DNA of 64,000 bases from Parcubacteria group bacterium (GTDB lineage Bacteria > Patescibacteriota > Minisyncoccia > Moranbacterales > UBA2206), in assembly GCA_041661275.1 (NCBI GenBank), contig JBAZUU010000001.1:35493-99492 (forward strand), given 5' to 3'. The translations under genes and the position numbers were made by a program. This document shows positions 15,923 through 43,589 of the stretch, in pieces. The notes under the pieces are model-generated. The model worked only from the letters and a program-made list of their open reading frames with translations, was not told where the DNA came from and did not search any database. Position 1 is the stretch's first letter; each line of letters starts with the position of its first letter.

Positions 15923-15923
15923 T

Positions 15924-16922
15924 TTATTTTTTCATCCCTTTCTTTAACAACTTTTTTACTTCCCGATCAAAATCAGAGATATAATTTTTGTCTTGGTTCA
16001 CGCGATATTTTTCATATTCTTCCAGTGCCTTCTTTTCAGCCTGTTTCGCACTTACCTTGCCGGATGAATGCAATAAATCCTTTTCCGAAATGGTCAAAAA
16101 TTCATCCAGTTTTCTGATCCAATCCTGCATTTTCATCAAACGGCCACTACTGGCTTGCAACTCTGCGAAATCGATATAGAGCGAAACAATGAGATTCAGC
16201 TGATTTATTTCCCGTTCAGTTAGATAGTTTTTTGCGACAACAATGTCATCGGTCGTAATATAATCACTTCTGAAACTCGTGAGTCCCATCAGGGGTTTCT
16301 TACTATCGGCACGCCGGGCGACGATTTCAGCCGCCGTATGTCCATGCACCGCGTAATGCATCTTGTTCTGCACCGTAGCAAAGAATTTTTGTGTCAACTC
16401 GGCATCAATTTTATAGTCGATGCTTGTCGCATAAATATCAGTAACTTTCTGATAAAACCTTCGCTCACTACTCCTGATGTCGCGCACTCGTTGCAATAGT
16501 TCTTGGAAATAGCGTGCTCGACCACCAACTTGTTTGAGTCGTTCGTCGTCCATTGTAAAACCCTTAATCAGATACTCTCTCAGCCTTTCTGTCGCCCATT
16601 TGCGAAATTGCATCCCCCTATCCGATCGTACACAATAGCCAACAGCCAGAATTACATCTAAATCGTAGTGTTTTGCGTTATAACTTTTGCCATCCGCGGC
16701 AGTTATTCGGAAATTCCTAATAACTGAATTTTCGTCCAATTCACCATCTCCAAATATATTTTTCAAATGTTCGTTGACCGTGGGAACGCTCACATCAAAA
16801 AGCTCAGCAATCAGTTTTTGCGTCAACCAAACATTTTCTCCTTCAATTCTAACATGAATTTTTTGCTCATCGCCAAGAGCTTGATAGATGGCAATTTGCG
16901 GTTTTTTATTCTCCTTTTTCAT
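15924..16922 (-). CDS. RhuM-family protein (virulence/anti-defense associated, HTH)
   Basis: VWLTQKLIAELFDVSVPTVNEHLKNIF...VGYCVRSDRGMQFRKWATERLREYLIKGFTMDDERLK matches RhuM family signature blocks. Confidence 0.75.
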   Translation of the reverse strand: MKKENKKPQIAIYQALGDEQKIHVRIEGENVWLTQKLIAELFDVSVPTVNEHLKNIFGDGELDENSVIRNFRITAADGKSYNAKHYDLDVILAVGYCVRSDRGMQFRKWATERLREYLIKGFTMDDERLKQVGGRARYFQELLQRVRDIRSSERRFYQKVTDIYATSIDYKIDAELTQKFFATVQNKMHYAVHGHTAAEIVARRADSKKPLMGLTSFRSDYITTDDIVVAKNYLTEREINQLNLIVSLYIDFAELQASSGRLMKMQDWIRKLDEFLTISEKDLLHSSGKVSAKQAEKKALEEYEKYRVNQDKNYISDFDREVKKLLKKGMKK

Positions 16923-16939: not shown

Positions 16940-18037
16940 TTATAGTGATATAATATCACTATAACCCTCCCTGTCCAGCTCACTGCTGTGGATAACTTTT
17001 ATCTTCCTCGTAATTCCATGCCCGTTGCAGTGTTTCAAAATCCCCGAATACGACTGCAAGCTCTGGCCAAACGATTCTCTGGAAACTAATTTTTCTCGAA
17101 ACATCTTATGTTTCAGTGATAACTTATGGAATATCCGCCTCTTTGTTTTTGTCCTCAAAACTCTATGGTGCGGTAAAACTATATATCCCAGAAAATCAAT
17201 TCCTTGCCTTAGTTTTCTGATAATAATTTTATCAGGATGCAGTTTTAATTTTAATTCCTGTTCGAGAAACTTTCCTATTTCTGGAATTAATTTTTCTAAA
17301 TATTTTTTGTCTTCCAACAAAATAATGAAGTCATCGCAATACCGCAGATAGTATTTTTCTTTTAGCTTATGTTTAATAAACTGATCGAGTTCATTGAGAT
17401 AAATATTGGCAAATATCTGGCTGGTCACGTTGCCCAGCGGCAATCCTGAATCGAAACTTTTGATAATTGTTTCAATAAGCCAAATAGCATTTTTATCGTC
17501 AATCTTCTTTTGAATAAGTTCCAATAATATTTCCTGGTCAATCGAATCAAAAAACCTTTTGATATCGCATTTGAGCGCGTAAATATTTCTATTATTATTT
17601 CGACTGGCTTTCCGACAAAATTGCTCTAATCTTAGAACCGCCCGGTGCGTTCCTTTTTCTACTCGGCAGGAATATGAATCAAAAATGAAAATTTTGTCGA
17701 AAATGGGGTATAATATTCTGAAAATGGCGTGGTGCAGAACGCGATCTCGCACGCAAGCTTTATGAATTCGCCGCAATTTTGGATCGTGCACGTTAAATGC
17801 GGTATAATGGGAATGTTGGTAGGTTTTGTTTTTTAGCTCGCAGTGGAGTTGAAACAAGTTATCTTCCAGACTAAATTCAAGTTCCTGAACGTCTGGCTTA
17901 TTTTTTTTGCCATTTCGAAATTCCTGCCAGGCTAAAAACAAATTTTCCAAGCTAATAATTTTTTCAAATATATTATGACAAATTTCGTCCCCACTAAAGC
18001 CCCCCCCCAAGGAGTTTCCGGTATTAATGTTGTTCAT
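16940..18037 (-). CDS. diversity-generating retroelement (DGR) reverse transcriptase
   Basis: RT domain with the YCDD active site. Motif 4 reads LGNVTSQ, the DGR-specific [I/L/V]GxxxSQ form, in place of QGxxSP. Located 330 bp from a TR/VR pair. Confidence 0.85.
   Translation of the reverse strand: MNNINTGNSLGGGFSGDEICHNIFEKIISLENLFLAWQEFRNGKKNKPDVQELEFSLEDNLFQLHCELKNKTYQHSHYTAFNVHDPKLRRIHKACVRDRVLHHAIFRILYPIFDKIFIFDSYSCRVEKGTHRAVLRLEQFCRKASRNNNRNIYALKCDIKRFFDSIDQEILLELIQKKIDDKNAIWLIETIIKSFDSGLPLGNVTSQIFANIYLNELDQFIKHKLKEKYYLRYCDDFIILLEDKKYLEKLIPEIGKFLEQELKLKLHPDKIIIRKLRQGIDFLGYIVLPHHRVLRTKTKRRIFHKLSLKHKMFREKLVSRESFGQSLQSYSGILKHCNGHGITRKIKVIHSSELDREGYSDIISL
16941..16998 (-). promoter_or_regulatory. 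promoter/operator element A: 23-bp palindrome tatagtgatataatatcactata (extended -10 TGaTATAAT / TGaTATTAT), upstream TGGACA -35, and 13-mer AAGTTATCCACAG
   Basis: Palindrome at 16941-16963. On the minus strand it reads TGGACA-16-TGaTATTAT ahead of the rhuM start 16922. ctgtggataactt at 16986-16998 is the reverse complement of AAGTTATCCACAG. Confidence 0.55.
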
Positions 18038-18373
18038 AAAAATAGCAAGCCTAAATTATTTATTGACCTTGAAAAATTATACGGCGACTGCTATGATCGC
18101 GTAAAAAATTTTCCCAAGCTGGATAAAAATCTCCTTGGAAAAGAAATTTTACAATTTTTGAACGATACGCACAAAGCCTCTTTGATCTCAATCTACGCTC
18201 CTTCTTATCTTCCTTTAGCCAGCGCTAATTTCGATCTGTTCAAAAAATCATTGCGGATTGCCGTGGACAAAAAATTCATTTCCTGCGGCTGGTATTCGGC
18301 TCATTTTGAAATTATCGTTTCCATTGGAAGAGATATCGGAAAATGGCTAAAAACAAAACGCCCGAAGTGCTAG
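17975..18373 (+). CDS. 132-aa ORF antisense to the RT-TR spacer; possible accessory (Avd-like?) protein or spurious
   Basis: An unusually long open frame for an AT-rich genome. Has a weak DCYD match to the Bordetella Avd N-terminus. It overlaps the RT 5' end and sits on the opposite strand. Confidence 0.2.
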   Translation: MTNFVPTKAPPQGVSGINVVHKNSKPKLFIDLEKLYGDCYDRVKNFPKLDKNLLGKEILQFLNDTHKASLISIYAPSYLPLASANFDLFKKSLRIAVDKKFISCGWYSAHFEIIVSIGRDIGKWLKTKRPKC

Positions 18374-18470
18374 GGCGAGGCGCAACCGGTTGACGCTGTT
18401 GGAGTTGTCGGCATCGTTCGAGTTGAGGTTGAACTCGCTGTCGTACGAGTCGGCAATGCCACACGAGACA
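18373..18470 (-). repeat. DGR template repeat (TR)
   Basis: 98 bp aligning with 18825-18922 at offset 452. Carries A (coding strand) at all 14 mismatch positions. The coding-strand 3' 32 bp are invariant (IMH-like). Confidence 0.8.
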
Positions 18471-18693
18471 AAATAGCGCTGTTCCGTCCTTTTTTCAAAA
18501 AGAAAAAATTTATTTCTTTTTATATCCTGTTTTTCAGGACTCCGTTTGGACGCTAACATAAATTCATTTTTCTCCGTCCCTGGAACCGCGCTGAACTTCG
18601 GGTTTTTGTATGAGGAGGATTCCGCGTACGGAAATCCTGCTGGACTCAAGGTTATTCTATCATCATTTTTCTGAAATTGAAATACTTATTGCG

Positions 18694-18728
18694 ATAAAAA
18701 AACCCCCGCAATGTTTCCATTGCGGGGT
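18694..18728 (-). terminator. rho-independent terminator downstream of DGR target gene
   Basis: ccccgcaatg-tttc-cattgcgggg is a perfect 10-bp stem. It is followed by a T-run on the minus strand (A-run 18694-18702 on plus). Confidence 0.5.
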
Positions 18729-18819
18729 TGAAATCAATCCGGAATCCAGAATCCATTTTCCGCTTCGCGGAAAAATCCTTTCCATCCCGAAGCGGGACGG
18801 AAAATCTGAACCCGAAATT

Positions 18820-19845
18820 CTATAGGGCGAGGCGCAACCGGTTGACGCTGTTGGAGCTGCCGGCACCGCACGAGCCGAGGCCGAACCCGCCGCCGCACGA
18901 GCCGGCAATGCCACACGAGACACCGGGATTCGTACCTTTGTCGCGATGGTCAACGACATTTCTCAGCCAATCCCACGTTTTGGGAGCCAGATATGTTTTG
19001 TTCTTCGCGTAACGCTGGCATGCCAGAATCATTTCTTCTTCCGCTGAAACTACTCTTACTTTCCGCTCGATCGCCGAAATGTATGAGCAATCGCGAAGTT
19101 CGACGATCCGGCCATCCTTGTTGACGATGGTCTGATTGGTGGAGATGTCCTGGGCGCTGTTGGTAAAAATGAGATCCACCATACCAGGAATGACCAAAAG
19201 TGGTCGCTTCCCGATAATCAGCCGAATTATTTCCGCCACCCACGCATTTTTGAAGTCGTCACTATTAAATTCCTCCGGCTCGACAGATATACCTCTTTCA
19301 AGAAGTTCTGCGAGCGTGAGTTTCGTCCACCGGTCAGTGCCGTTCTCCGCCCAGACCCTGAAGCCTTCTTTTTTGAGCGGTTTCATAATCCGCTCGTAGA
19401 AAAACCGGGCGCCAGTCATCTGCGCTTCCGTATCGGACAAGATTAGCGGCGTAGCTTTGACTTCGGCGTAGCTGAGACAGCCCGCTTCTAGCCCGGCTTT
19501 GATGGCCGGCATCCTGTTCGGGTCAATGGAGATTTTCTTGAAATCGATACGGAAATCATCGCCGTAAAACTGGCGATAAAAAACTTCCTGCTCGGCGATC
19601 TGGCCCATCAATCCGCCTGACAGTTTCGACTCCAGCTTATTCTTCTTGAGCCAGAGCAAAAACTTTTTGAGGTTGAGGTTTTTTCTGACAGGGATGATGC
19701 CGGAATTTCTTTCTCGTTCTTCTTTTTTCAAATTGAGAAACCATTCCAGCTCCTCCAAAGACAACTCTCCTTTACGAAGCTTGGAGAGCAGGTCGATTTG
19801 CAGACCAGCCAATCTGGCCGTTTCTGCTCCGATGATCACACTCAT
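18820..19845 (-). CDS. DGR target (variable) protein, 341 aa, VR-encoded C-terminus GSCGGGFGLGSCGAGSS
   Basis: In-frame through the VR. The TR reading in the same frame has AAC/GAC codons where the VR has GGC/TGC/AGC. No obvious signal peptide. Confidence 0.7.
   Translation of the reverse strand: MSVIIGAETARLAGLQIDLLSKLRKGELSLEELEWFLNLKKEERERNSGIIPVRKNLNLKKFLLWLKKNKLESKLSGGLMGQIAEQEVFYRQFYGDDFRIDFKKISIDPNRMPAIKAGLEAGCLSYAEVKATPLILSDTEAQMTGARFFYERIMKPLKKEGFRVWAENGTDRWTKLTLAELLERGISVEPEEFNSDDFKNAWVAEIIRLIIGKRPLLVIPGMVDLIFTNSAQDISTNQTIVNKDGRIVELRDCSYISAIERKVRVVSAEEEMILACQRYAKNKTYLAPKTWDWLRNVVDHRDKGTNPGVSCGIAGSCGGGFGLGSCGAGSSNSVNRLRLAL
18825..18922 (-). repeat. DGR variable repeat (VR) at 3' end of target gene
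   Basis: Differs from TR at 14 sites, all at TR coding-strand adenines (13 A>G, 1 A>T). Encodes the Gly/Cys-rich C-terminus. Confidence 0.8.
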
Positions 19846-20129
19846 CGTTTTCTCCCTTCCTATAACTATAAATTTAAAAAGGTACTTCTTTTTCTCTCAA
19901 TTACCGGCCAATCCGGCAATTCAAGAAAGCATAGCACAAAAGCCGCCCGGAGTCAAACCTGGAGTCAAATTTGGGGCGGTAAAATGGCGTTTTTTGGCTT
20001 GAATAAGCAATAAAATTAGCTATTGCAATAAAATTGGTTCTATGCTAGTATTAATTTACAGAAAGTTCCCGGCCCAGGGTCTACAAGCACCCTACAATGG
20101 CGGGGAATTTTTTTGTGTTTATTTTTTAC

Positions 20130-20546
20130 TTATGACGGAGGAAAGCAAGACATAAAAAATTTGCGTTTGGTTTTAGAATCTTCTTTTATTTGCACAAAAA
20201 AGAGCAATCCTTCTTCGGTTAGCCCTGCAAATCTATAGAAAGTTTCTTTGGGTTTATTGGGATTATTTTTTATAAACGGTTTATTTCTTGAATTTTTAAC
20301 GAGTTCTACCGACGCGCAAAAATACTTAAGCCTCTCTAATCTGTCTTTGTACGGCTTTTGCCGCAAATGATCCCAAAAGTAGTCAAAAAATATTTTTTCT
20401 TTTTTGAAATAAGCACTACGGACATATGGCCTTCTTTTACTTTTTCTTTTTACTTCTGAAAATATATTTAAAGCGTTTCTATATACTTCCGTACGGCTGG
20501 TTCCAGGAACCTTTCTTGATTTTGTCTGATATGGAATAACCTCCAT
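20130..20546 (-). CDS. hypothetical basic protein (about 138 aa) downstream of the DGR target
   Basis: Start chosen at the internal ATG 20546 (MEVIPYQ...), directly behind promoter element B. Lys/Arg-rich. Confidence 0.45.
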   Translation of the reverse strand: MEVIPYQTKSRKVPGTSRTEVYRNALNIFSEVKRKSKRRPYVRSAYFKKEKIFFDYFWDHLRQKPYKDRLERLKYFCASVELVKNSRNKPFIKNNPNKPKETFYRFAGLTEEGLLFFVQIKEDSKTKRKFFMSCFPPS

Positions 20547-20566
20547 TGAATTATTTTTGTTTTTAT

Positions 20567-20625
20567 TATAGTGATATAATATCACTATAAATAATCCTTG
20601 TCCACCCCTACTCCACAATTATCAT
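20567..20625 (-). promoter_or_regulatory. promoter/operator element B: palindrome identical to A (23/23), with TGGACA-17-TGaTATTAT on the minus strand
   Basis: tatagtgatataatatcactata at 20567-20589. TGGACA lies 17 nt upstream on the minus strand. A degenerate box follows (ctccacaattatc). Confidence 0.55.
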
Positions 20626-21807
20626 CGCCTTCCGGCCTTCGGTGATCTTGTCGCGATTTCCCGGGAAATCGTGGATGGCGTTATAAAGAGTGTTGATGTT
20701 ATAGCGATAGCCGGCTCCTTTCCTGGTGCCGGAATCATTGGTGATTATCGTATCACCGTCATAACCGATCAAGACCACGGCATGGTACGGCGGACCGGGA
20801 TATTTGAAATTAGGATTGCCCAGCATCTGCCCTGCCGCCGGAATGATGATCGGTTTTCCCCGCGCCAGATATTTTTTCAAATCTTCTTTTTTGAAATCAT
20901 AAACGACTTTCATATTATTTATTCCATAAAAATCACGTGCCAGAGTCACGATTTCCTGAGCGCTGCTATCGATATAATTGTCATATTTTGTTATCTCGAA
21001 CTTTATCATTTTTTGGATTTCATTTTCAGCCGTGTTTGGATCCAGCGGCTTTCCATCCAAAAAATATTTCACCATAATAAGAGCTGTTTCCTCACAAGCT
21101 TCTTCATGAAATTGATCCCATTGGGCGAATGGTGCTTGCGGAGTAAAAGGAACCTTAATCAGCACTCTTTCGGGAATAGGCGCATTGGTATTGGCATTAA
21201 TATTGGCATTATTATCATTACTGCTTTGACTACCGGTAACACCAACATTTTTATTTTCATTATTGCTGGTAACAATATTATTCTGATTTTGAGAAGAATC
21301 AACCGGACTGGAAAAAACAACCGTATTTTTGGCAATATTATTTCCTTCTTCGATCATCTGGAAAGTAAGACCGGAAATAGCCAGAGCGATGATTGCGACA
21401 ATAAAAATCGTATGCTTTTTCAACTGTCCTGTTATTTTCGTCACAATTATCTGCGTAGCCAGAAGCGCGCTCAAAAAATCAAAAACTACATCAATGAAAC
21501 GTCCGGATCGGCCGGGAATAAAAGTTTGGTGAAACTCATCGCTAGTGGCATAAAAGAGTACTGCTGCTAGAGTCAAAACAAGCGCGTCACGCATAACAAG
21601 ATTCCAGGAATAATAGAAAATACGCCAAACGAGCCAAAGAAGAATGGCATATTCCGCCAGGTGTCCCGCTTTTCGCGCCACTACTTCCAGTGTCACGTTA
21701 GACGATCCCATATTAAGATCAGGAATGGAAGAAAGATAAAAGATCAAAACCATCCAAGTAAAAGCCGGGAGATAATATTTGAAAAAGTTTATAATTTTTG
21801 AATTCAT
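20608..21807 (-). CDS. VanZ-like membrane domain fused to C39-like papain-fold peptidase domain protein
   Basis: N-terminal VanZ motifs (ARKAGHLAEYAILLWLVWR, DEFHQTFIPGRSGRFIDVVFD). The C-terminal half has a C39-like fold (..HAVVLIGYDGDTIITNDSG). Confidence 0.55.
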   Translation of the reverse strand: MNSKIINFFKYYLPAFTWMVLIFYLSSIPDLNMGSSNVTLEVVARKAGHLAEYAILLWLVWRIFYYSWNLVMRDALVLTLAAVLFYATSDEFHQTFIPGRSGRFIDVVFDFLSALLATQIIVTKITGQLKKHTIFIVAIIALAISGLTFQMIEEGNNIAKNTVVFSSPVDSSQNQNNIVTSNNENKNVGVTGSQSSNDNNANINANTNAPIPERVLIKVPFTPQAPFAQWDQFHEEACEETALIMVKYFLDGKPLDPNTAENEIQKMIKFEITKYDNYIDSSAQEIVTLARDFYGINNMKVVYDFKKEDLKKYLARGKPIIIPAAGQMLGNPNFKYPGPPYHAVVLIGYDGDTIITNDSGTRKGAGYRYNINTLYNAIHDFPGNRDKITEGRKAMIIVE

Positions 21808-21810
21808 CGG

Positions 21811-22974
21811 TTAATATATAATGACTGGCGTACCAACATCTGTCCATTCAAAGGCTTGCTTGGCCGGGCCGACTCCCAGTCGGATACAGCCGTGTGACAC
21901 CGGGATACCCAAATGATTAGCGCCCTCTTTATATCCCCCCGGCCATTCCGGAAGTTCATGGATACCGAAACTGCCGTCGCTAGCCACCGCCATCCAATAC
22001 GGCATGTAGAGTCCGTATCTTTTCGACCACACTCTTGGCGCTTTGTTATGAATAGTAAATTCGCCCTTTGTCGTTTCCATCCCTCTTTTGCCGGAAGAGA
22101 TCATGCTGGACATGACTATTTTTCCATTTTCAAAAAGAGAAAGAACCTGGGCTTCCAGATTGACGTCGATATATTTTCCTTCTTCGATCTTGGCCTTGGT
22201 GAAACGTTTGGCCTGCTCAAGTCTCGCCGTGAAATCCTTTTCCCATGATAGGGGTTCCGGCGGCAAAGTAGAAAAAGAACTTCGGAAAATTTCCCGATAA
22301 TTATCGTCTGTGTCTTTGGAAAATTTAGCATAGATGACCAATTTGTATTCCTGCCCTTCCTTTATTTTTTCCTGAGGAAGAATTTTGAACTGCGTCTTAT
22401 CTTCGTTGTTTTTGTAGGACATCGGGCTATCGGGAGTCAGGGAAAATTTCAGAAAAAATCCTTCAGTCGACTGATCGAAATTGACAACTATAGGATCTTC
22501 GATATCTAACGCAACGTCTTTGGCGCTGTCCTCCGGAATTATTTTTGTAACCCGAGGAAACTTGATAGTGGAAAAAGTTATATCCTGCGCGTCAATTCCC
22601 GCCAGCATGGCATTTTTTCCATCTGGAAGCGACAGTGTATATTGGGTTTCTGGCCGCCAAAAGTTCTTTGGCATGATGATCAGTTTCTTTCCGGAATTTT
22701 CCCAGGTGTATTCCATTTCGGTTTCCGGCAGCACTTTTATTCCAGTGCTATAATTTTGCGTCATGACCGGTTGGGAAAAATTGATAACGATGGGATCTAA
22801 CGGCTTCACATTTTCCCTATTTTCCATCGCGATTTCCGTTTTGAAAACCTGCGGGTAAGCTTCGATACTGTAGGCTGATCCGAATACTCCGGCAGCCATT
22901 ATAGACAGCACAAAAACAAAAACTTTCCAGCTGGTTATGTGATGGGTGCCGACATGTTTTTTTATCCTGTCCAT
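21811..22974 (-). CDS. L,D-transpeptidase (YkuD domain) with N-terminal Ig-like repeats
   Basis: C-terminal SHGCIRLG catalytic motif. N-terminal signal/TM. Confidence 0.8.
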   Translation of the reverse strand: MDRIKKHVGTHHITSWKVFVFVLSIMAAGVFGSAYSIEAYPQVFKTEIAMENRENVKPLDPIVINFSQPVMTQNYSTGIKVLPETEMEYTWENSGKKLIIMPKNFWRPETQYTLSLPDGKNAMLAGIDAQDITFSTIKFPRVTKIIPEDSAKDVALDIEDPIVVNFDQSTEGFFLKFSLTPDSPMSYKNNEDKTQFKILPQEKIKEGQEYKLVIYAKFSKDTDDNYREIFRSSFSTLPPEPLSWEKDFTARLEQAKRFTKAKIEEGKYIDVNLEAQVLSLFENGKIVMSSMISSGKRGMETTKGEFTIHNKAPRVWSKRYGLYMPYWMAVASDGSFGIHELPEWPGGYKEGANHLGIPVSHGCIRLGVGPAKQAFEWTDVGTPVIIY

Positions 22975-22978
22975 ATAT

Positions 22979-23998
22979 TTATTTTACCACAGATTTTCCA
23001 TTAAATAATTCCCGCGCGCTGTTCCACAGCTCCGGATGATCTTTTTCCACTTTCAGCCAATACCACCATTCCACGCCCCATAAATACATTTCAGGAAATC
23101 CGACACGCCTCGCGAACGATACATTATCTACTAATTTTTCTTTGTTCATTGATTTAAACTGTTCGTCCAGTGGACATTCAGTCGTGTAGCCGGAAATCCA
23201 TGGTTCAGCTTGAAGCTCGATAACAATAGCCCTATCTTGATTGGCAAAAGTTTTAATCAGCCAATGCTTAAACCAGAAAAATCGGGGTCCTATTGGATAA
23301 TCAAAATATCCCAATCCTTTTTTATATATCGTCCGATACATGGTCGTTCCAAAAATATCGGCGCGTTTGGCCGCCTGTATCCAGAGGCTCAATTCCCCAC
23401 TGTCAGTAACAATTACCGGGCGAGACGGATCCTTAGCTTTGACCAGCGCTATTTCGCTATCAAGAAGATTAGTGTCGAGCGCGGGACAAATGCCAAAGGA
23501 CAAAAATGGCTCATTTTCTACCTGCCAGGCTTCAATATTGCTATAACTTTTCAAATTATCTATTGCTTTATCAATAAATTTAAGAAGGCTTCCTTTTCTT
23601 TTTTGATCATCATTTTTCGCCCATTCCGGGATGGCGCATTCCGGCCAACGCGGCACTTTCTGTCCGACTACCAAAATTACATCGGCATTCCTCTTTTTTG
23701 CCTCATCCAACTGCCAGGCGATATCGGAAAAATCATATTGGCCTTCCTGTTTTTCCACTAGATCCCAATAGATGGGAATCCTCACTTTTTTTACGCCAAG
23801 GTCATCAAGCATGGCGATATACGCCTCCTTCCAGTTGAGCATGATATCCCCGGCATAACGGGAAGAGAAAGTTACTCCCAGCTTGGCATCCGCATTTTCT
23901 TTGGCGACAGGAATATTGAAATAAATTAGAAGTATAATTGCCAAACCCAAAATTATGCCCAGCGTCCAGAGTATGAATTTTAATATTTTTTTTATCAT
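22979..23998 (-). CDS. membrane-anchored glycoside hydrolase (clan GH-A TIM-barrel, NEP motif)
   Basis: WQVENEP acid/base motif. N-terminal TM helix. Length 339 aa. Confidence 0.5.
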   Translation of the reverse strand: MIKKILKFILWTLGIILGLAIILLIYFNIPVAKENADAKLGVTFSSRYAGDIMLNWKEAYIAMLDDLGVKKVRIPIYWDLVEKQEGQYDFSDIAWQLDEAKKRNADVILVVGQKVPRWPECAIPEWAKNDDQKRKGSLLKFIDKAIDNLKSYSNIEAWQVENEPFLSFGICPALDTNLLDSEIALVKAKDPSRPVIVTDSGELSLWIQAAKRADIFGTTMYRTIYKKGLGYFDYPIGPRFFWFKHWLIKTFANQDRAIVIELQAEPWISGYTTECPLDEQFKSMNKEKLVDNVSFARRVGFPEMYLWGVEWWYWLKVEKDHPELWNSARELFNGKSVVK

Positions 23999-24001
23999 TT
24001 A

Positions 24002-24928
24002 TTATCTTTTGGAAACTAAAAATACTCCTATGGCAATAATCAAAATGGCTGATATTTTTTGAATCGTGCTTCTGGCATCTCTTTTTTCTTCAAAAAATCC
24101 GGGAAACCACAAGGAAAATAGCACTCCCAGAATGAAAACAAACACATATTCTATAGCCACTATGGCATTGACAATTGTCACACTGGCCAGAATTAGTGAT
24201 GTCGCGTATTCCTTAAGAATAGAGCCACCGCCACCGATAGCTCTAGCCATAACAAATAATAATCCTGATTTTTTGTGCTCCCTTTCCGGTTCTTTGAATT
24301 TAAAAACGGATGCTAAAATTACTTTCCGCCACCTCGGAACAAAAAGAAGGGTAAGAACACCAAAAAATGACCCGACCACTCTCCAGACATAAACGTTGAT
24401 AAAATTATCGTGGCTATAGAATCCTTTGAGCGTAACGGCGGAGATAGCCAAAAGCGTTCCGGCCAGGATAGACCAATAAAAACCATCAAACAATTTAATT
24501 TTTTTGACGCTTGTCAGGTCATATGATATCCAAAGCCCGCCGATAACGAGAAAAAATATTCCTGTTATCTGACCCGGTTTTAGATGCTCGTTGAGAAATA
24601 TGGCGGCTAAAAAAAGCGCCAAGATCGGCACGACGACTCCGACGACCGGAACAACCCGACTGGCTTCGCTTTTGGCGATAGCGGAAAAAAGAGAAAACAT
24701 CCCATAAATAAAAATTACTCCGGCTACGAAGCGAAGAAAGGCATCCGAATAACTCAAAGCATGGACGCCAAAAGGAATAAAAAACAAAGCAAAAAGCCCC
24801 AGCGCTCCGGCATAAAAAGTGTATATGGCCGGATGGGAAACGCGCCTGCTCGAAAGTAAAAATTTATCCAAAACCACTTCCAGCGCCAGCAAAAAATATG
24901 CAACTGTTGAAATGGCCAACCAATTCAT
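24002..24928 (-). CDS. polytopic membrane protein (EamA/DMT-like transporter?)
   Basis: 308 aa with about 10 hydrophobic segments. Confidence 0.4.
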   Translation of the reverse strand: MNWLAISTVAYFLLALEVVLDKFLLSSRRVSHPAIYTFYAGALGLFALFFIPFGVHALSYSDAFLRFVAGVIFIYGMFSLFSAIAKSEASRVVPVVGVVVPILALFLAAIFLNEHLKPGQITGIFFLVIGGLWISYDLTSVKKIKLFDGFYWSILAGTLLAISAVTLKGFYSHDNFINVYVWRVVGSFFGVLTLLFVPRWRKVILASVFKFKEPEREHKKSGLLFVMARAIGGGGSILKEYATSLILASVTIVNAIVAIEYVFVFILGVLFSLWFPGFFEEKRDARSTIQKISAILIIAIGVFLVSKR

Positions 24929-25282
24929 GACTTTTGGGTTTTTATATTTATATTCTACCTATATTCTACAATGAAAAGTAAAAGCCCGCCACGATGTGAG
25001 CAGGCTTTTAGCAGACCCTTCCTTTTAAAGATCTACTTTTGTTATTTAGCGACGCCATTGCCATTCCTGCTGGCATCCCCAATCATTCGTATATAAATAA
25101 AACCATTACTTTCTGGATGGGTGCCAATCCTAATTCTTCTCTTTCTCATTTTTGCGACTTCCTTACAATTTCGAGGAAATACAAAACCCAGTTCATTTCT
25201 GACAACCGCCTCGGTAATTTCAACATAATTCATAACCCATCTCCTTGAAGAAAAGTTCAGAGCAAATACCGATAAAGAACAA

Positions 25283-25315
25283 ATAAAAATCCACCCTTCG
25301 GGGGTGGTTCTTTTT
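25283..25315. terminator. bidirectional hairpin terminator
   Basis: ccaccc-ttcgg-gggtgg flanked by A-run and T-run. Confidence 0.45.
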
Positions 25316-25456
25316 CTTTCCTCTATCCTTATGGATTAGCGAGTCGATTCAAAAACCACCGCCGTATGAGCGCTGGATGACCCGCCTCCGCAAACGATTT
25401 GGTTTTTAGCTCGTAGTTCCATAGTGATAATAATATAACGGATGGAAGAAAAAATG

Positions 25457-25705
25457 TCAAGCTCGGTTTTTTATTATCTTCATCTTTTCATATCTCGTCA
25501 AATTCTTTATCCGATATTCTTCTTTTAGGGCCTTTGATCTGGTCTTGATTTTTTTGGAGTATACTAACTTCACCGGCCTTCGGCCTCGGGTATATTTCGC
25601 GCCCAACTTTCCGCTGTTATGCCCGTTTATTCTTTTCTTGAGATCGACCGCGATTCCGGTATAAAAAGTTTTGTCTGAACATTGAAGAATATACAGATGA
25701 TACAT
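25457..25705 (-). CDS. GIY-YIG nuclease family protein (YhbQ/UPF0213-like)
   Basis: YILQCSDKTFYTGIAVDLKKRINGHNSG is the GIY-YIG signature. Length 82 aa. Confidence 0.75.
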   Translation of the reverse strand: MYHLYILQCSDKTFYTGIAVDLKKRINGHNSGKLGAKYTRGRRPVKLVYSKKIKTRSKALKEEYRIKNLTRYEKMKIIKNRA

Positions 25706-25743
25706 TAATATCTGTTTAAATATTTAACAGTATAGCTACCTTC

Positions 25744-25911
25744 TTTAGCGTTGCGCCATGGCGCTGACGGCGAGACCGATGTAATACGGCCAGAGAACAA
25801 TCGCCAGCACACCTTGCCAGAAGGCCAGATGCAAGAATCCGATGGTGAACAGCCACCCGGCGAACCAGGAGAAGGCCGTAAAACCATGTTGTTCTACTTT
25901 TATCTTTTGCA
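25744..25911 (-). CDS. GC-rich small membrane protein ORF (55 aa), hypothetical
   Basis: Manual translation MQKIKVEQHGFTAFSWFAGWLFTIGFLHLAFWQGVLAIVLWPYYIGLAVSAMAQR. Local GC is far above the genome background. Confidence 0.3.
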
Positions 25912-26062
25912 TACCCGGTAGTAGAATTTTGACTTTAATTTAGTTAAAATCAAACTCTAAAAATAGGTTTATTAATTAATCTATCTTTTACTCAATAGTA
26001 ATCCGTTGGCCGAAGGCCAGTCAAAATTTCACTACCGGGCATATATTTAAAAATTACGATTG

Positions 26063-26788
26063 TTATTTCGCCATCGCCTTGGCTTTCAAATTTTTTGGCA
26101 TTTTCTCGATGGCATAGCGAAGGGCTGTCCGCGGCATTTTCTTTTTGTTCTTCATGACATAGTCAAAAACTTCCTTTTCGTGCGCCTGGCTCGCCACTTT
26201 CAACATCCATCCGTAACCTTTTTGTACCATATCATCCGGATCTAGCAATAGTATATCAGAAATTTGAAAAATATCTGGCAAAAATTTTCCACGCTTTCCA
26301 GGAACGATGAGGGAGACGGCCGAGGCGCGGCGCATCCAACGATTTTTTGACTGCGCCCATTTTTTCAGACTTTTTACATACTCCGGATATCGAACCAAAA
26401 ATTCGCCGACCGTATGGTTGCAAAAAGTATCACACGCCGCCCAATTGCTGACATAAATTTCTATCCAGCTTTCAAACACTTTAAAATCTTTCGGCTCGTA
26501 ATATTTTCTGACATAATATGACCAGTTACAAGCGATGAAAGCTTCTTCCATATAGCCGGACTTCCACAACTCTTCGCACAAGCCAAAAATTTCTTTTTTA
26601 TTCTGACTTTTAATTTCCTTGAAATTTTCTCTCCCGATCATACTGACGGTTGCCGTCTTCACACCATAAAGCTTGATCTTTTCTTTGAAAAACCTTTCGC
26701 CGCTTTTCCTCACTTTCTCATCGGCATTCTTTTTCAGCTCGCGCCGTATTTTTTGGACAATTTCACTCATTTGTCTATTAAACTTCAA
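26063..26788 (-). CDS. DNA alkylation repair enzyme (AlkC/AlkD-like HEAT-repeat glycosylase family)
   Basis: 241 aa. Conserved W/Y-rich helical repeats (WSYYVRKYY, VSNWAACDTFC, WMRRASAVSL) resemble the PF08713 family. Confidence 0.7.
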   Translation of the reverse strand: MKFNRQMSEIVQKIRRELKKNADEKVRKSGERFFKEKIKLYGVKTATVSMIGRENFKEIKSQNKKEIFGLCEELWKSGYMEEAFIACNWSYYVRKYYEPKDFKVFESWIEIYVSNWAACDTFCNHTVGEFLVRYPEYVKSLKKWAQSKNRWMRRASAVSLIVPGKRGKFLPDIFQISDILLLDPDDMVQKGYGWMLKVASQAHEKEVFDYVMKNKKKMPRTALRYAIEKMPKNLKAKAMAK

Positions 26789-27446
26789 AAGTCATTCTCT
26801 TATACACCTCCCGCGTGCATTCTACATCCCGCTTACAATATTCGCAGATATCTTTCGTTTTTCCGGCTTTATAGAAAGAATATACCTGTGAACCGTCAAT
26901 TCCGTCTTTGGGTGTCGGAATCCCCAAGGCCAGGGCGACATGTTCGAGACCAATATTGCTGTTGGCCCATTTGACCCATTCTTTCATCGTATCGTATATC
27001 GGATAGTTTCTATAACGGGTGAAAGGAAGTTCATAGGCCGGCTTGACTTTATTGATAATAGAACGCTGGTAGATGAACCGCAGATCAAAATCCATGACAT
27101 TGTGCCCGATGAACTGTACGCCATAATCCGGCTGATAAGAATTATGGTTTGGAGAAACACTAATAGACTCAACAATGTCCCAGAATTTTTCGATCATCCT
27201 GGCTTCATCAACGCTCCCGTCCAAAACTTCCACTGGCTCATCATCGATAGCATAAGCGATGCAAAGAATCCGTCCGAACGACCCATCAAAAGAAGTTCCT
27301 AAAAGATACTGCTCAAAATCAGTATGGTCGTCACAATTTTCTTTCTTATTCTTCTTGGCTTTTTTTTTCTCAAACAAAAATTTCAGCGCCTCGTGCTGCT
27401 CATCTCCCGCCGGCAAAGTCTCGATGTCCAGGTACAATCTTCGCAT
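26778..27446 (-). CDS. DEDD-type 3'-5' exonuclease (PolB-exo-like, PF10108-like)
   Basis: Exo I YLDIETLP, Exo II GHNVMDFDLRFI, Exo III YCKRDVECTREVY. Confidence 0.7.
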   Translation of the reverse strand: MRRLYLDIETLPAGDEQHEALKFLFEKKKAKKNKKENCDDHTDFEQYLLGTSFDGSFGRILCIAYAIDDEPVEVLDGSVDEARMIEKFWDIVESISVSPNHNSYQPDYGVQFIGHNVMDFDLRFIYQRSIINKVKPAYELPFTRYRNYPIYDTMKEWVKWANSNIGLEHVALALGIPTPKDGIDGSQVYSFYKAGKTKDICEYCKRDVECTREVYKRMTFEV

Positions 27447-27559
27447 AATTTTTTGTTACAATAGTTAATCTGTTTCAATTATATCAGTCCCTAAAAACAA
27501 AAACCAGCCCACGAGGACTGGAAAACTCGCCAGTTTTTTTAATTTCTGTAATATCTAAT

Positions 27560-27787
27560 CTATAAATGACTTTCCGCTTCAGCGAAGGCCTTGGAAAAAT
27601 CAGCAAAATGATCTTTGAACAACATTATCCGATTAGTTACCCTTTCTCCGTCTTTTTTCTTATACAGTTCAGCGATTGTCAGATAGTGACTGCCGTTAGA
27701 CGCTTTTTTGACATCGAAGAAATAATTTTTGCCTCCCGCTCGAACCATCTGGGAGTGCACTTTCTCCGGCATGTTTTGTCCCTCCAT
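27560..27787 (-). CDS. PUR-alpha-like ssDNA/RNA-binding protein (DUF3276 family)
   Basis: MVRAGGKNYFFDVKKASNGSHYLTIAE...MLFKDHFADFSKAF matches the DUF3276 pattern. Confidence 0.6.
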   Translation of the reverse strand: MEGQNMPEKVHSQMVRAGGKNYFFDVKKASNGSHYLTIAELYKKKDGERVTNRIMLFKDHFADFSKAFAEAESHL

Positions 27788-27907
27788 AATTTTTTGGTAC
27801 GCGTCTTTTAAATTTTTCCATTAGTCTTATGTTAGCTGCAGCTAGATAAAACTTTTGGCGTGACGCATACATATTAAGTATTAGCGCGAGGGTCTTTTTC
27901 CACTCGC

Positions 27908-27963
27908 AGTGATATTCTATCACTGATGATATACCACTGCAAGTACTACCCTGTGGATAACTT
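27908..27963 (-). promoter_or_regulatory. promoter/operator element C: palindrome agtgata-ttc-tatcact with extended -10 (TGaTAGAAT), -35 TTGCAG, box AAGTTATCCACAG
   Basis: Minus strand reads AAGTTATCCACAG-8 nt-TTGCAG-17-TGaTAGAAT, upstream of the gene at 27787. Confidence 0.55.
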
Positions 27964-28013
27964 TACACCATAGCCTACTTGCCCGCCCTTGGAGAGACCC
28001 ATTTTCCTTCTCT

Positions 28014-28328
28014 CTATTTTGAAATGAACAAGATAGCCAGTGCTATGATCAAAAAAAGAAGAAGGCAGCCTAATGTGAGGATGAATAGTTTGACTGCCTC
28101 TTTCTTCTGGCCGTCAAAATAAAGCGTGGCTGGTTTTCCCAAGATCAGAGCGCCCGAAACAGCGGCAGAGAGAACTAAAAGAAGGAGGAGCGTTATTGGA
28201 GCGAAAATAGTATCAGGTTTTTGGCTAAGATATTTTTCAGCGTTTCTAAAGAAAGTTGCGACAAGAATTATATAAACCACTTCGCCCAAAGCGCATAAGA
28301 AAGCAATTTTGAATAATTTTTTTGTCAT
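28014..28328 (-). CDS. small membrane protein (3 TM), hypothetical
   Basis: 104 aa, hydrophobic. Confidence 0.4.
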   Translation of the reverse strand: MTKKLFKIAFLCALGEVVYIILVATFFRNAEKYLSQKPDTIFAPITLLLLLVLSAAVSGALILGKPATLYFDGQKKEAVKLFILTLGCLLLFLIIALAILFISK

Positions 28329-28501
28329 AGTGTTTTTTTGTAAGTTTACCCCGTTAAATTGGTTTTTTATTTAATGGGGTAATTAATTACGTAATTAAAT
28401 GTACCTGACTCCCTCATTCCCCTTATTCTTTATTAGATTAGTGGGATATAAAGTTTGTCTAAAAGTTTGTCTAATGGTTTGTCTAAAATATCGGATTTTA
28501 G

Positions 28502-30160
28502 CTAAACTTTCTGCCACTTGGGATATCTACTTGTGCCCTTGTTTATTATCGTTTTATCCTTTTTAGACATAGCATAAACAATGTTTCTTATTTTATTTTT
28601 CTTTTGTTGTTCATCTAAAATTTTTGGAAGTATATCTAAAATTAATTTTTCAATATCATTTTTAGATGCTTCTTTATACTTCTCTAGATATTCAAGTATC
28701 ATTTTTTTATAATGATCGTCCTTAAATCCTCTCATTTTAATGTATTCGCTCTTTTCTCCAGTTTTAACCGCAACTTTCGAAGAAATGTATATGTTGGGAC
28801 TTCGACCCTCTATGAGATCCCTCCTTCTAAGTTCCTTCGCTTCATATGTGTTTAATTCTTTTCTTTTCTGAACTTTATCCAGAGCGATGATTATTTTCAA
28901 ACCCAGATCGGGAATTTGCGCAAGTTTTTTGGCATATTGTACATCTAGCACTTTTCCTATAATAGTAAGCTTGACTTTCCCGCCAGATAAATCATATTCT
29001 GGAAGAGGGAAAAATTTATTTTTTTGCGATATAAACATCTTTTTTATTCCACTTCCTATTGTGTCAATCATATTTACATTGACCATAGCATCGACAAGAA
29101 ACTTGTTCCTATAATACTCAGACGGTGAATCTGCCTCTATGACATTCTCGATTGTCCCTGGAATAAAAGCACCGAGATTTGAAAATATCAAACTGTCATC
29201 TTCATTTTCAACAACGTTTATTTTTCCTCCAAACTCATAGTCTTGATGAGCAATGCAATTATTAATCGCTTCTCTGATAGTAGTTGGATCATACCTATCA
29301 ATTTCCTCTGGAAAAAGCGTCCTATAAGATATATATCTATAACGCAAATTTCTAATTTTTTTATAAACATTTTCGACAGCTAAAATAAATGGACAACTAA
29401 AATGTTCGTAATCTTTTTCAATGCCATCCTTATCCTTTAAAATCCAAGAGATTTTTGCACAAGCCGGATTAATAAAATGCTCCGCTTCTGTTTTTCCTAA
29501 TAGCACAATGGCTGTTCGTGTAATCTTGCCATTAATCGTAACTCTTGCTTTGTTTAGAAATATCTCGTTGCTCCAACTTTCAATTTCTTTCTTATCAATC
29601 TTGGGATTCTTACGCCCAAATCCTTCTCTCGCTTTCTGTATCGCCCCGCGGTCTAAATCTTCAATTGTAGCACCGTCACAAATTTTAGCACTCCAGTCTT
29701 CCAGCTTTGATTGCAATCGGATTCTCTCAATTTTTTCTATGCTTAACGGAACAAGATCTTCATTTTCTCGAGCATAATAGAATCCTTGCCAGGCAATCGG
29801 AATCCCTTTTGGAGCAGGAGGGATTTCGAATAGAACAACTCTCTTCCCTACCCTTCTCACTTCATAAACATCGATGAAAGATATCCCTCCAGTGGTTTGT
29901 TTAGCTATCTCCGATTTTAAACTGTTTAATTTTACAGGATCTTTTCTATAATTTGTTCCAACAATATTTTTGTTATTTTTTATACCCAAAACCAACCAGG
30001 CTGATTTTATCTTTTTTAAATTTGCTTCGTTGCTAAGTGCGCTAAAATATTTGCCTAGTTTTCTGAAATCAAAATCCGTCTTAGCTTCTTTCCATTCGAC
30101 TACTTCATTTTCAGCCGGAAGTGAAAGAATATAATCAAGTTGTTCTTCTATTTTTTTCAT
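28502..30160 (-). CDS. AlbA_2 (Schlafen-like divergent AAA) DNA-binding domain protein with C-terminal HATPase-like region
   Basis: N-terminal VVEWKEAKTDF...LSNEANLKKIKSAWLVLGIKNNKNIVGT matches the PF04326 pattern. Length 552 aa. Confidence 0.6.
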   Translation of the reverse strand: MKKIEEQLDYILSLPAENEVVEWKEAKTDFDFRKLGKYFSALSNEANLKKIKSAWLVLGIKNNKNIVGTNYRKDPVKLNSLKSEIAKQTTGGISFIDVYEVRRVGKRVVLFEIPPAPKGIPIAWQGFYYARENEDLVPLSIEKIERIRLQSKLEDWSAKICDGATIEDLDRGAIQKAREGFGRKNPKIDKKEIESWSNEIFLNKARVTINGKITRTAIVLLGKTEAEHFINPACAKISWILKDKDGIEKDYEHFSCPFILAVENVYKKIRNLRYRYISYRTLFPEEIDRYDPTTIREAINNCIAHQDYEFGGKINVVENEDDSLIFSNLGAFIPGTIENVIEADSPSEYYRNKFLVDAMVNVNMIDTIGSGIKKMFISQKNKFFPLPEYDLSGGKVKLTIIGKVLDVQYAKKLAQIPDLGLKIIIALDKVQKRKELNTYEAKELRRRDLIEGRSPNIYISSKVAVKTGEKSEYIKMRGFKDDHYKKMILEYLEKYKEASKNDIEKLILDILPKILDEQQKKNKIRNIVYAMSKKDKTIINKGTSRYPKWQKV

Positions 30161-30170
30161 ATACCTACCT

Positions 30171-30602
30171 TTAATTATCTCGATATTTTTTTATAATTTC
30201 CAAACAATCCTCGTAAGCCTCGGCTTTTCCGCCGATAAATTTATTGAGTCCGTATTCTTCGATTTTTTCACTTTCCCACAATTCCTCTTTCCATTCTTTT
30301 CTATAATTTTTTGCTAATGTTGCAATATGATTTTCCAGCGATTTTCCTGTAATTTTTTCAATAAAACCTTTCGACATCAATCGAACTGTGTCCGGATATA
30401 ATTGTTGCAAATTTTCCCAAAGTTCAAATGTTTGATATTTGTCATCTCCACTAATCATTTCCCACTCTTCCGGCTCGATTTCCACAAAATCATCATCTTC
30501 TTCCGTATATTCTTGGCACATAACCAGAAATGGAAAATAAAAATCTTTATACTCATCTAAATATTTCAATATTTTTATTGCCAGCTCTCTTGATATTTTC
30601 AT
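30171..30602 (-). CDS. hypothetical acidic protein
   Basis: 143-aa ORF packed tightly between the AlbA_2 and DpnI-like genes. Confidence 0.4.
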   Translation of the reverse strand: MKISRELAIKILKYLDEYKDFYFPFLVMCQEYTEEDDDFVEIEPEEWEMISGDDKYQTFELWENLQQLYPDTVRLMSKGFIEKITGKSLENHIATLAKNYRKEWKEELWESEKIEEYGLNKFIGGKAEAYEDCLEIIKKYRDN

Positions 30603-30662
30603 AAAATTGGTCAGGATTTAATTTTTATTCCTGATCAATTTTTGATCGGTTTCGTAATTGTG

Positions 30663-31433
30663 TCAAATCGTCAATTTATACCTCCCTTTTCCAATAAATT
30701 CCAAGTATCCGTTGTCCCTCAAGACTTGCAATTGCTGACGAAGTTTATCCTTTATAAAGTTATTTTGGGGATGATTCTTTTTCAGCTCTTTTTCAAAAAA
30801 ATACACCTCATCGAGAGAAAACTCTTTTTTGCCAAGTTTATCGATACAATTCATTGTATCTAAAATCCACCCCTTGGCTGATATTTCTTTCTCATCTCTT
30901 ATAAATAATGTTTTTCGCCAATTTTCCAAAACATTTTTCTTCGTCTCCGCTTTCCTATCTTTGACATAAAATATTTTTCCCGTCTGTGGTATACCAACAA
31001 GTGAAATATTGCACCCTATCCATCCAGCTCGTCTGGCATTTTCCGAAAGTGGTCTTCTTTTTTCAATAATGTCCGGAATAAAAAAATGTTTAGGAATAAC
31101 CAAAAAATTTAGAATCTCGAGATTTTTCAAATCATAATTAAGCAAAAAGAAGTTTGGATTATTGCTACACTGCAATCTTTCAATCATCGTCCGATAAGCA
31201 CCATCAACAATTTTCGTTCCGATTGAATTCTTTTTACTTTTTAGTTCATACTCTTCGGCACAACTCGGACAAAAAAAATCAGCAACTGGCCGATTATTTT
31301 CATAGCTGCTAACATTAGTTCCGCAATTCGGACAATAAATTTCGTTATCAACCCAGCTTTCAGTTAAAACTCTAATTTTTTGCGAGTTACTATTATAGTT
31401 TTCAGCAATTTTAACATCTAGAGCTATTTGCAT
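30663..31433 (-). CDS. DpnI-like methylation-dependent (Type IIM) restriction endonuclease
   Basis: Long collinear similarity to DpnI as I recall it: YNSNSQKIRVLTESWV..YCPNCG..ENNRPVADFFCPSC.EEYELKSKK..DGAYRTM..NNPNFFLL..ARRAGWIGCNI..LNCIDK..IKDKLRQQLQVLRD. Confidence 0.7.
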   Translation of the reverse strand: MQIALDVKIAENYNSNSQKIRVLTESWVDNEIYCPNCGTNVSSYENNRPVADFFCPSCAEEYELKSKKNSIGTKIVDGAYRTMIERLQCSNNPNFFLLNYDLKNLEILNFLVIPKHFFIPDIIEKRRPLSENARRAGWIGCNISLVGIPQTGKIFYVKDRKAETKKNVLENWRKTLFIRDEKEISAKGWILDTMNCIDKLGKKEFSLDEVYFFEKELKKNHPQNNFIKDKLRQQLQVLRDNGYLEFIGKGRYKLTI

Positions 31434-31546
31434 ATTTTAACAAAATTATCCTTTTTGAAATAAGGTTTGTTTTTTATCTCAGACAATATCTTTCTCTGCT
31501 GTGCAACTGTAACCATAGTTTGTAAATTATAACATACGTCCTCCAT

Positions 31547-31603
31547 AGTGATATGGCAACACTACTACAATATCACTGCAATACGCTCGCCTGTGGATAA
31601 CTT
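31547..31603 (-). promoter_or_regulatory. promoter/operator element D: agtgatat-N15-atatcact inverted repeat plus box AAGTTATCCACAG upstream of the DpnI-like gene
   Basis: ctgtggataactt at 31591-31603. Inverted repeat arms at 31547-31554 and 31570-31577. Confidence 0.5.
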
Positions 31604-32252
31604 AATTTTCCCTAAATCTATTATAAAACAACTTCTCGCCTTCTCCGACCACTTTAATTTCATCATCGATGATCGCAACTGCCTGTTGATCAGTAAGGGC
31701 AACTATAGGTAAATTGGTTTTTTTCGCGCCTTCCTGGATAGCTTCAGAAAAATCTTTGGTATAGTGCGCAGTGAGTAAAAAAGGCACAAGATTCAGACCA
31801 GTGAGATCTTTTAGTCCAACCACATCCCTATCCTGATTTTTCCAATGTGACATTTCTATAGTTGGGCAGGCAACATAGCTTCCGGCGCTGACGCCTACAT
31901 AAATTTTTCCTTCGTCCAGAAGTTTTCCAATAATTTTGTCAAAACCACTCTTCCTGGCCCAATCGAGAAGATAAAAAGAATTTCCGCCGTTTACATATAC
32001 AATATCGCAGACTGATAGTTTTTCATATAACGATTCTTCATTCTCTTTTTCCAGATAAACTTCGTCAATTTCCATGCCCATTTCTTTCAACTCATCCTTT
32101 GCTTCCTCGACATAATCCCTGATAACTTCCGGATAGGCGGCTGTAGGAATAAAGCCAACCTTAAGACCACGAGGGTCTTTATCTAAAAAATCCAAAAAAT
32201 ATTTTCTGGTTTCTTCAGGCAATCCGGCCGATGTTAGAAATAATTTTCTCAT
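31602..32252 (-). CDS. peptidase E-like (S51 family) dipeptidase
   Basis: VYVNGGNSFYLL and VGVSAGSYV are S51 signatures. Confidence 0.7.
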   Translation of the reverse strand: MRKLFLTSAGLPEETRKYFLDFLDKDPRGLKVGFIPTAAYPEVIRDYVEEAKDELKEMGMEIDEVYLEKENEESLYEKLSVCDIVYVNGGNSFYLLDWARKSGFDKIIGKLLDEGKIYVGVSAGSYVACPTIEMSHWKNQDRDVVGLKDLTGLNLVPFLLTAHYTKDFSEAIQEGAKKTNLPIVALTDQQAVAIIDDEIKVVGEGEKLFYNRFREN

Positions 32253-43514: not shown

Positions 43515-43570
43515 AAAGCATTTATCCACAGTTTCCGATATTTGCCGGTTGACAGAAATCGGCTGCTCTG
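43515..43570 (+). promoter_or_regulatory. TTATCCACAG box plus consensus promoter TTGACA-17-TATACT
   Basis: Box at 43515-43524, -35 at 43542-43547, -10 at 43565-43570. Confidence 0.5.
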
Positions 43571-43589
43571 CTATACTGCCGGAGTAAGA

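Follow-up and report, generated by a model that had tools for sequence, protein, structure and literature searches.

Four promoter elements on a Moranbacteria chromosome segment

The window analyzed here is a 64-kb chromosome segment from a bacterium of the candidate phyla radiation (CPR), belonging to the Moranbacteria (Parcubacteria), and it contains four short elements, A, B, C, and D, that are probably sigma-70-type promoters operated by the LexA repressor. The region is flanked by housekeeping genes encoding RNase J, a class I (Trp/Tyr-type) tRNA synthetase, ribosomal protein S6, EF-P, IF3, and tmRNA. A protein encoded in the window has an identical counterpart in a MAG (metagenome-assembled genome) recorded as 'Parcubacteria group bacterium'. 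A first reading of this DNA (the original prediction) had described the four elements as a family of repressor-operated promoters, and inspection together with alignment of the elements confirmed their positions, all on the minus strand and all upstream of minus-strand genes (Table 1). They share a common layout, in which a -35 hexamer is followed by an extended -10 inside a 17-bp palindrome with the consensus AGTGATATAATATCACT. In A, C, and D, the 13-mer AAGTTATCCACAG lies 8 or 9 nt upstream of the -35 hexamer, and the DnaA box within it starts 35, 36, and 37 nt upstream of the palindrome, respectively. The palindrome of B is identical to that of A, and B has neither the 13-mer nor a DnaA box.

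Table 1. Positions in the window of elements A to D, the genes behind them, and the diversity-generating retroelement (DGR). ORF, open reading frame
Feature	Position	Strand	Details
A 13-mer	16986-16998	-	AAGTTATCCACAG; perfect DnaA box TTATCCACA at 16987-16995; within last codons of DGR reverse-transcriptase ORF; 8 nt to -35
A core promoter	16944-16977	-	-35 TGGACA 16972-16977; spacer 16 nt; extended -10 TGaTATTAT; LexA-type palindrome AGTGATATTATATCACT 16944-16960
Genes behind A	15059-16922	-	rhuM 15924-16922; Bro-N protein 15059-15922 (Pfam)
B core promoter	20570-20604	-	-35 TGGACA 20599-20604; spacer 17 nt; extended -10 TATTAT in perfect palindrome 20570-20586
Gene behind B	20130-20546	-	138-aa basic protein; conserved Parcubacteria family
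C 13-mer with DnaA box	27951-27963	-	8 nt to -35
C core promoter	27908-27942	-	-35 TTGCAG 27937-27942; spacer 17 nt; extended -10 TGaTAGAAT; palindrome AGTGATAGAATATCACT 27908-27924
C second operator, degenerate	27922-27938	-	Overlaps -35
Gene behind C	27560-27787	-	75-aa PUR-like DUF3276 protein; Pfam match made on orthologue
D 13-mer with DnaA box	31591-31603	-	Overlaps TAA stop of upstream peptidase S51 gene (31602-32252); 9 nt to -35
D core promoter	31547-31581	-	-35 TTGCAG 31576-31581; spacer 17 nt; weak -10 TGCCAT; degenerate palindrome AGTGTTGCCATATCACT 31547-31563
Genes behind D	30663-31546	-	First 40-codon remnant ORF 31424-31546, then DpnI 30663-31433
DGR	16940-19845		Complete
DGR reverse transcriptase	16940-18037	-	
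DGR template repeat	18371-18470		
DGR variable repeat	18823-18922		At 3' end of target gene
DGR target gene	18820-19845		
bAvd-like ORF	17975-18373		Weak; strand opposite to DGR

The four elements recur far beyond chance, and a chance origin is excluded: the palindrome pattern has four matches in the window against 0.13 expected, a number reached in no shuffle, and the 13-mer occurs three times exactly and has five matches at up to two mismatches against 1.25 expected. A generic promoter scan picked out A and B, each matching 10 of 12 hexamer positions and having the TG extension.

The palindrome at lexA promoters

Composite sites were sought with a query consisting of AAGTTATCCACAG, a gap of 30 to 40 nt, and ATATCACT, using one genome per species. 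The query retrieved 59 genome loci, about 50 of them from Moranbacteria/Parcubacteria MAGs, with up to four loci per genome, and the related loci are almost all from Candidatus Moranbacteria. The -35 hexamer, a G-rich spacer, and the left palindrome arm AGTGATA are conserved at these loci though they lie outside the query, and the spacers differ from copy to copy, which argues for a regulatory site rather than a repeat or a mobile element. As judged from these alignments, the module is lineage-wide and regulatory and not a mobile repeat. Restriction to one defense island, an option of the original prediction, is not favored, since the module occurs throughout the lineage and extends to lexA.

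The first sizeable ORF behind each composite site was taken as the downstream gene, and these genes were clustered. The largest cluster, found at 13 loci, encodes a 222-aa protein that by its sequence is the LexA repressor of the S24 family. It matches the Pfam families LexA_DNA_bind (24.8 bits; cut-off 23.7) and Peptidase_S24 (60 bits), and it aligns end to end with TIGR00498 lexA at 87 bits, under the 111-bit cut-off of that model. Neither the serine of a GDSM motif nor the lysine varies, and a CG dipeptide in an ASCGEA stretch occupies the expected position of the cleavage site.

A set of 80 lexA loci was then fetched from metagenomes by protein similarity alone, without use of the motif. 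The palindrome lies over the -10, beside a TTGCAG/TTGACAGTGATA -35, in all 78 loci with enough upstream DNA, at 33 to 305 nt upstream of the start codon. Among 65 unique sequences, T2, G3, T5, A6, T10, A11, C13, and A14 are invariant, giving the skeleton TGnTAnnnTAnCA. The invariant positions are symmetric and centered on the -10, and they include C13 and A14 downstream of it, where sigma-70 has no known requirement; this symmetry indicates recognition by a dimeric protein. Only one further box was detected in the 360 kb around the lexA genes, before a rhuM gene. Because the palindrome is universal at lexA and rare outside lexA promoters, it is best explained as the LexA operator of the lineage, in support of the repressor-operated promoter family and the shared, SOS-like regulon that had been proposed. 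An extra site over the -35 (TTGCAGTGATA) is present in lexA-type, C-type, and D-type promoters; in D, the half-site CAGTGATAT overlaps the -35.

In the mechanism that we propose, the center of the operator would double as the extended -10 TGnTATAAT, so that bound LexA would occupy exactly the sigma-70 site. A LexA dimer would sit on the -10, the second site over the -35 would also be occupied in the promoters that possess it, and RNA polymerase would be kept out until DNA damage led to self-cleavage of LexA. We consider it likely that LexA is the binding protein and that the promoters are damage inducible.

Seventeen LexA motifs are known, and a Patescibacteria motif from 2017 (Sanchez-Osuna et al.) is listed among the sources cited in their description (PMC8565304). 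If that study reports the same motif, the operator is already known, and what is new is its coupling to a DnaA box and the membership of the regulon. Literature searches for LexA together with Moranbacteria or Parcubacteria, and for DGRs together with SOS, returned nothing relevant. The LexA boxes of other lineages, such as E. coli CTGT-N8-ACAG and the Bacteroidetes motifs, share with the present one a palindromic operator over the core promoter, an autoregulated lexA, and a lineage-specific motif (PMC8565304). The motif here is AGTGATAT-A-ATATCACT and differs in having the extended -10 built into its center; the regulon differs in being dominated by lexA, the PUR-like protein, and defense-like accessory genes, with recA mostly outside. 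As LexA boxes go, the element is an ordinary lineage-specific one with two unusual traits, the built-in extended -10 and a single perfect DnaA box as its regular partner. CPR bacteria cannot be grown alone, and gene regulation in them is almost unknown; the module supplies a promoter model (-35 and extended -10), a Moranbacteria LexA operator that can be scanned for, and a connection of the replication initiator with the damage response that can be put to the test.

The 13-mer and the DnaA box

The conserved core of the 13-mer is exactly the universal DnaA box, TTATCCACA, as the original prediction had correctly recognized, and A, C, D, and the majority of related promoters have it without a mismatch. 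In the lexA set, the flanks vary (AAG, TAG, GAG, GAC) and the 9-mer stays perfect. The box is forward in 57 lexA promoters, reversed in 7, and absent from 14, with positions confined to a 5-nt range, and the forward boxes start 34 to 38 nt upstream of the palindrome. The corresponding boxes of A, C, and D would lie at about -54 to -46 from the predicted transcription start.

The -35 hexamer would give the promoter its direction, with the perfect box adding to this in A, C, and D. The replication initiator DnaA is the most likely candidate to bind the box and modulate the promoter, which would tie expression to replication status; we put this DnaA part of the reading at about an even chance. 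A more extensive proposal, which we advance tentatively and regard as possible rather than probable, is that in Moranbacteria, with their small genomes and few regulators, DnaA would act as a global transcription factor and the box would be a standard upstream promoter module and a near-obligatory partner of the LexA operator, making expression of lexA, RhuM, Bro-N, DpnI, and possibly the DGR dependent on both damage and replication status.

Promoters combining the two types of site are known from E. coli, where LexA and DnaA jointly regulate uvrB and recN, whose promoter regions likewise combine LexA operators with a consensus DnaA box (PMC6015884, PMC8203912). There, few genes are involved and several boxes are irregularly placed, whereas here one perfect box stands at a fixed distance in most regulon promoters, including that of lexA. 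The promoter of E. coli nrdAB likewise has DnaA boxes near the core promoter, where DnaA can stabilize or exclude RNA polymerase (PMC8203912); it differs from the present module in having no LexA operator and several boxes whose function has been shown, compared with one box here whose function we infer.

A serious alternative, though one that we would not expect to prevail, is that the 13-mer is not a DnaA site at all and is instead bound by an unknown lineage-specific factor or acts as a signal across the genome, for example in DNA uptake or as a boundary or insulator. The 13-mer is approximately 10- to 20-fold overrepresented: 180 perfect boxes were found where about 9 would be expected in 763 kb of Moranbacteria DNA, and the DnaA box is about 10-fold enriched in these genomes beyond the LexA-box promoters. 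Outside LexA promoters it still keeps extended flanks (aaAG...G), copies of either orientation are found, and those in viral contigs are spaced differently from the -35. Against these points, the invariant core is exactly the universal DnaA box, with variation beginning right outside it, and its spacing to the -35 in LexA promoters is tight. Uptake sequences are usually much denser and are not tied to promoters.

The viral contigs in question, L002, L003, and L006 from IMG/VR, carry AAGTTATCCACAG 18 nt upstream of promoters without a palindrome and may represent phages of the same hosts that use the box without LexA control. In L003 and L006, the copies are approximately 450 to 500 nt apart, each 18 nt upstream of a TTGCAA/TTGTAA promoter, and in L002, two copies are approximately 3.7 kb apart. 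A box ahead of another kind of promoter is also found in the window: the original prediction had placed a copy of the shared upstream sequence before a micropeptide promoter at 43515, and at 43522 there is indeed a perfect DnaA box. A gap of 20 nt separates it from a TTGACA-17-TATACT promoter on the plus strand that lacks the palindrome and precedes (43522-43663) a 21-codon ORF. A replication origin in the window was considered and rejected: the GC-skew minimum is near 60 kb, but there is neither a dnaA gene nor a cluster of boxes, so the window boxes are not origin boxes.

Several observations weigh against promoters operated by LexA and linked to DnaA as set out above. The original prediction had given all four elements a palindrome with an extended -10, which stands for A, B, and C; in D, both the operator and the -10 are degenerate and clearly weaker, and the palindrome departs, at A6, from the eight positions that are otherwise invariant. 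Neither lexA nor recA is encoded in the window, so the LexA of the source genome is assumed from relatives; in close relatives, for example on the L081/L156 contig, lexA and the same promoters are both present. When five recA loci (L159 to L163) were fetched without reference to the motif, only L159 had a box, and it was absent from L160 to L163. The DnaA box is not specific to LexA promoters, as at least 39 unique boxes occur elsewhere in the lexA-selected 360 kb; 29 of the 39 lie outside long ORFs, many retain the aaAG...G flanks, and some stand ahead of other promoters at varied distances. Others are found between a stop codon and a terminator, not beside a -35, which is a poor fit to a simple activator site. 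Finally, the fetched DNA included no Moranbacteria dnaA/oriC locus to show that the DnaA of the lineage uses AGTTATCCACAG.

Regulon members, other readings of the palindrome, and neighboring features

Besides LexA, the genes downstream of the composite sites form clusters of DUF3276 proteins (10 loci), N6/N4 DNA methylases (6 loci), two Bro-N families (10 loci), RhuM (3 loci), and KilA-N (2 loci); RecA, RecQ, a ClpP-like protease, and an Avd-like protein are among those met once. Members of these clusters are orthologous to the window genes for RhuM, Bro-N, and DUF3276. Recurrence of the palindrome before the same families as in the window (RhuM, Bro-N, DUF3276, and DNA methylase) agrees with the shared regulon that had been suggested. 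Orthologues of the A genes lie behind the same module in L057, L047, L019, and L142 and in L013, L036, L039, L042, L044, and L156. RhuM and the Bro-N protein fall into the PADLOC candidate defense families PDC-S05 and PDC-S13, and the DpnI behind D has both a Pfam match and a PADLOC match (mREase_II). The basic protein behind B belongs to a family of at least 388 clusters that is without a Pfam family. A predicted terminator (27521-27504) directly follows the DUF3276 gene of C, and the exonuclease, alkylation-repair, and GIY-YIG genes farther downstream lie past it. An Rfam search for noncoding RNA downstream of the promoters found only tmRNA and tRNAs.

A box was found at recA only in L159 and, by the composite search, in L009, and at recQ only once. 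The boxless RecA genomes include the Moranbacteria MAG RIFCSPHIGHO2_02_FULL_40_12b, whose lexA (L016) carries the module. Because recA is mostly without a box, the LexA regulon appears rich in defense-like accessory genes rather than matching the classical SOS set. The regulon consists mostly of lexA, the PUR-like protein, and accessory genes, several of which are PADLOC defense candidates (PDC-S05, PDC-S13, and DpnI). With candidate anti-phage genes, a methyl-directed restriction enzyme, and a DGR-adjacent gene behind LexA boxes and recA mostly not, this composition suggests that LexA in these organisms mainly gates accessory and defense functions. In the Moranbacteria loci L159 to L163, recA usually lies behind a RodZ-like gene, with no recognizable operator.

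The same composition is what gives some weight to a different repressor as the binding protein, for example one of the Bro-N/KilA-N type or a phage-type repressor traveling with the accessory genes, with lexA merely a target. Taken together, Bro-N, KilA-N, and RhuM, all with putative DNA-binding domains, follow the sites as often as LexA does, and most recA genes do not belong to the regulon. We nevertheless think this unlikely: the site is universal only at lexA (78 of 78 loci), the accessory genes are patchy among genomes, and bacterial LexA proteins as a rule control their own gene by way of a palindrome over its promoter (PMC8565304).

The gene content behind D and around A and B bears on a second reading, and it is described here before that reading is weighed. 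D does precede a DpnI gene, as predicted, but the 40-codon remnant ORF comes first and matches the N terminus of the N6/N4 DNA methylase of L027. At 30171-31546, DpnI and a conserved 143-aa partner stand in place of the DNA methylase found behind this promoter in relatives such as L027, with the 40-codon remnant left. In L044, the same DpnI pair begins 17 nt past a 13-mer, and the remainder of the promoter is gone. In Streptococcus pneumoniae, DpnI and DpnII are alternative cassettes, and the arrangement at D is alike in that DpnI with a small partner gene replaces the DNA methylase of relatives; unlike the S. pneumoniae cassettes, the swap at D left a methylase remnant behind a LexA-type promoter.

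A complete DGR sits between promoters B and A. Its template and variable repeats are 86% identical, and the differences are mostly T in the template and C in the variable repeat, read on the plus strand, a pattern that fits adenine-specific change of the coding strand. The original prediction had the basic ORF after the DGR target, but the ORF lies 5' of the target in the direction of transcription; the target gene follows it with no predicted terminator between them, although weaker promoter-like sites are found there. In the relative L156, the order of basic ORF, rhuM, Bro-N, and L20/L35/IF3 is as in the window and the DGR is absent; the basic ORF has the LexA box without the DnaA box, and rhuM and Bro-N each have box and operator. 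The difference between A and B in possession of a DnaA box is therefore inherited. B was considered as a DGR-specific promoter and rejected, because the basic ORF has homologues in many settings that lack a DGR, and the more distant of these genomes have neither a DGR nearby nor a LexA box. From these contexts, B is the promoter of the basic ORF in this sublineage and not a part of the DGR.

That the elements are ends or recombination sites of mobile cassettes (a miniature inverted-repeat transposable element [MITE], an insertion sequence [IS] end, or an attC-like site), with the promoter appearance secondary, is very improbable. The downstream genes do differ among genomes behind the same module, the reverse-transcriptase reading frame runs into the 13-mer in three genomes (the window, L041, and L013), and the DpnI junction in L044 and the absence of the DGR from L156 could be read in the same way. 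Conservation is nevertheless limited to the box, the -35, and the palindrome, and the spacers and flanks vary freely among copies and genomes, as would not be expected of a MITE. There are no terminal inverted repeats, target duplications, or nearby transposase or integron integrase genes, and the site is fixed upstream of the core gene lexA. The terminal-repeat origin in an IS or MITE family that the original prediction had left open is accordingly not what the unconserved spacers and flanks look like, and of its cassette-associated option only a weak residue survives, namely the variable gene content downstream of a conserved module and some junctions at the 13-mer. An attC-type site is further opposed by the nature of the elements as promoters at gene 5' ends and by the only recombinase gene (45736-47319) belonging to a separate tRNA-adjacent element. 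A phage origin was also rejected, as megablast of 12 to 36 kb of the window against a phage collection gave no match.

Also very improbable is that no repressor is involved and the palindrome is simply the strongest promoter form of the lineage, an extended -10 with a favored initial transcribed sequence: its center is the textbook TGnTATAAT and the nonpalindromic promoter at 25432-25460 also continues with ATCACTAT, but the invariance is symmetric and includes C13 and A14, the housekeeping promoters of the window lack the palindrome, only one extra copy occurs in 360 kb, and additional half-sites lie over the -35.

The original prediction had also listed degenerate copies of the element at two positions. 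The sequence at 25421-25440 belongs to a distinct TTGACA-17-TATATT promoter with the right half-site only. This strong minus-strand promoter and an intrinsic terminator (25307-25291) enclose, within 25285-25460, approximately 135 nt that have no ORF and no Rfam match and that possibly encode a small RNA. The sequence at 57387-57413 (57449) is unconvincing and was rejected as a family member, having three mismatches, no -35 at the proper distance, and a box that lies on the side opposite to the expected one. A candidate LexA-like box of weak match, CATGATAAAATAGCATT (3098-3114), keeps the invariant skeleton within a plus-strand TTGACA/extended -10 promoter (3080-3471); the ATG of a 118-aa coiled-coil-like ORF is directly behind it, which would allow a leaderless mRNA. 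At 50474, a match to the skeleton is likewise a candidate box only.

Two further features lie apart from the elements. The region 45676-61819 looks like an integrated element: the large serine recombinase gene mentioned above abuts tRNA-Asn and is followed by aminoglycoside-phosphotransferase-like, GNAT, methyltransferase, and UvrD-like genes and an AbiEii toxin gene. At 42978-43307, a 109-aa protein contains a eukaryote-type RNA recognition motif (RRM_1, 76 bits).

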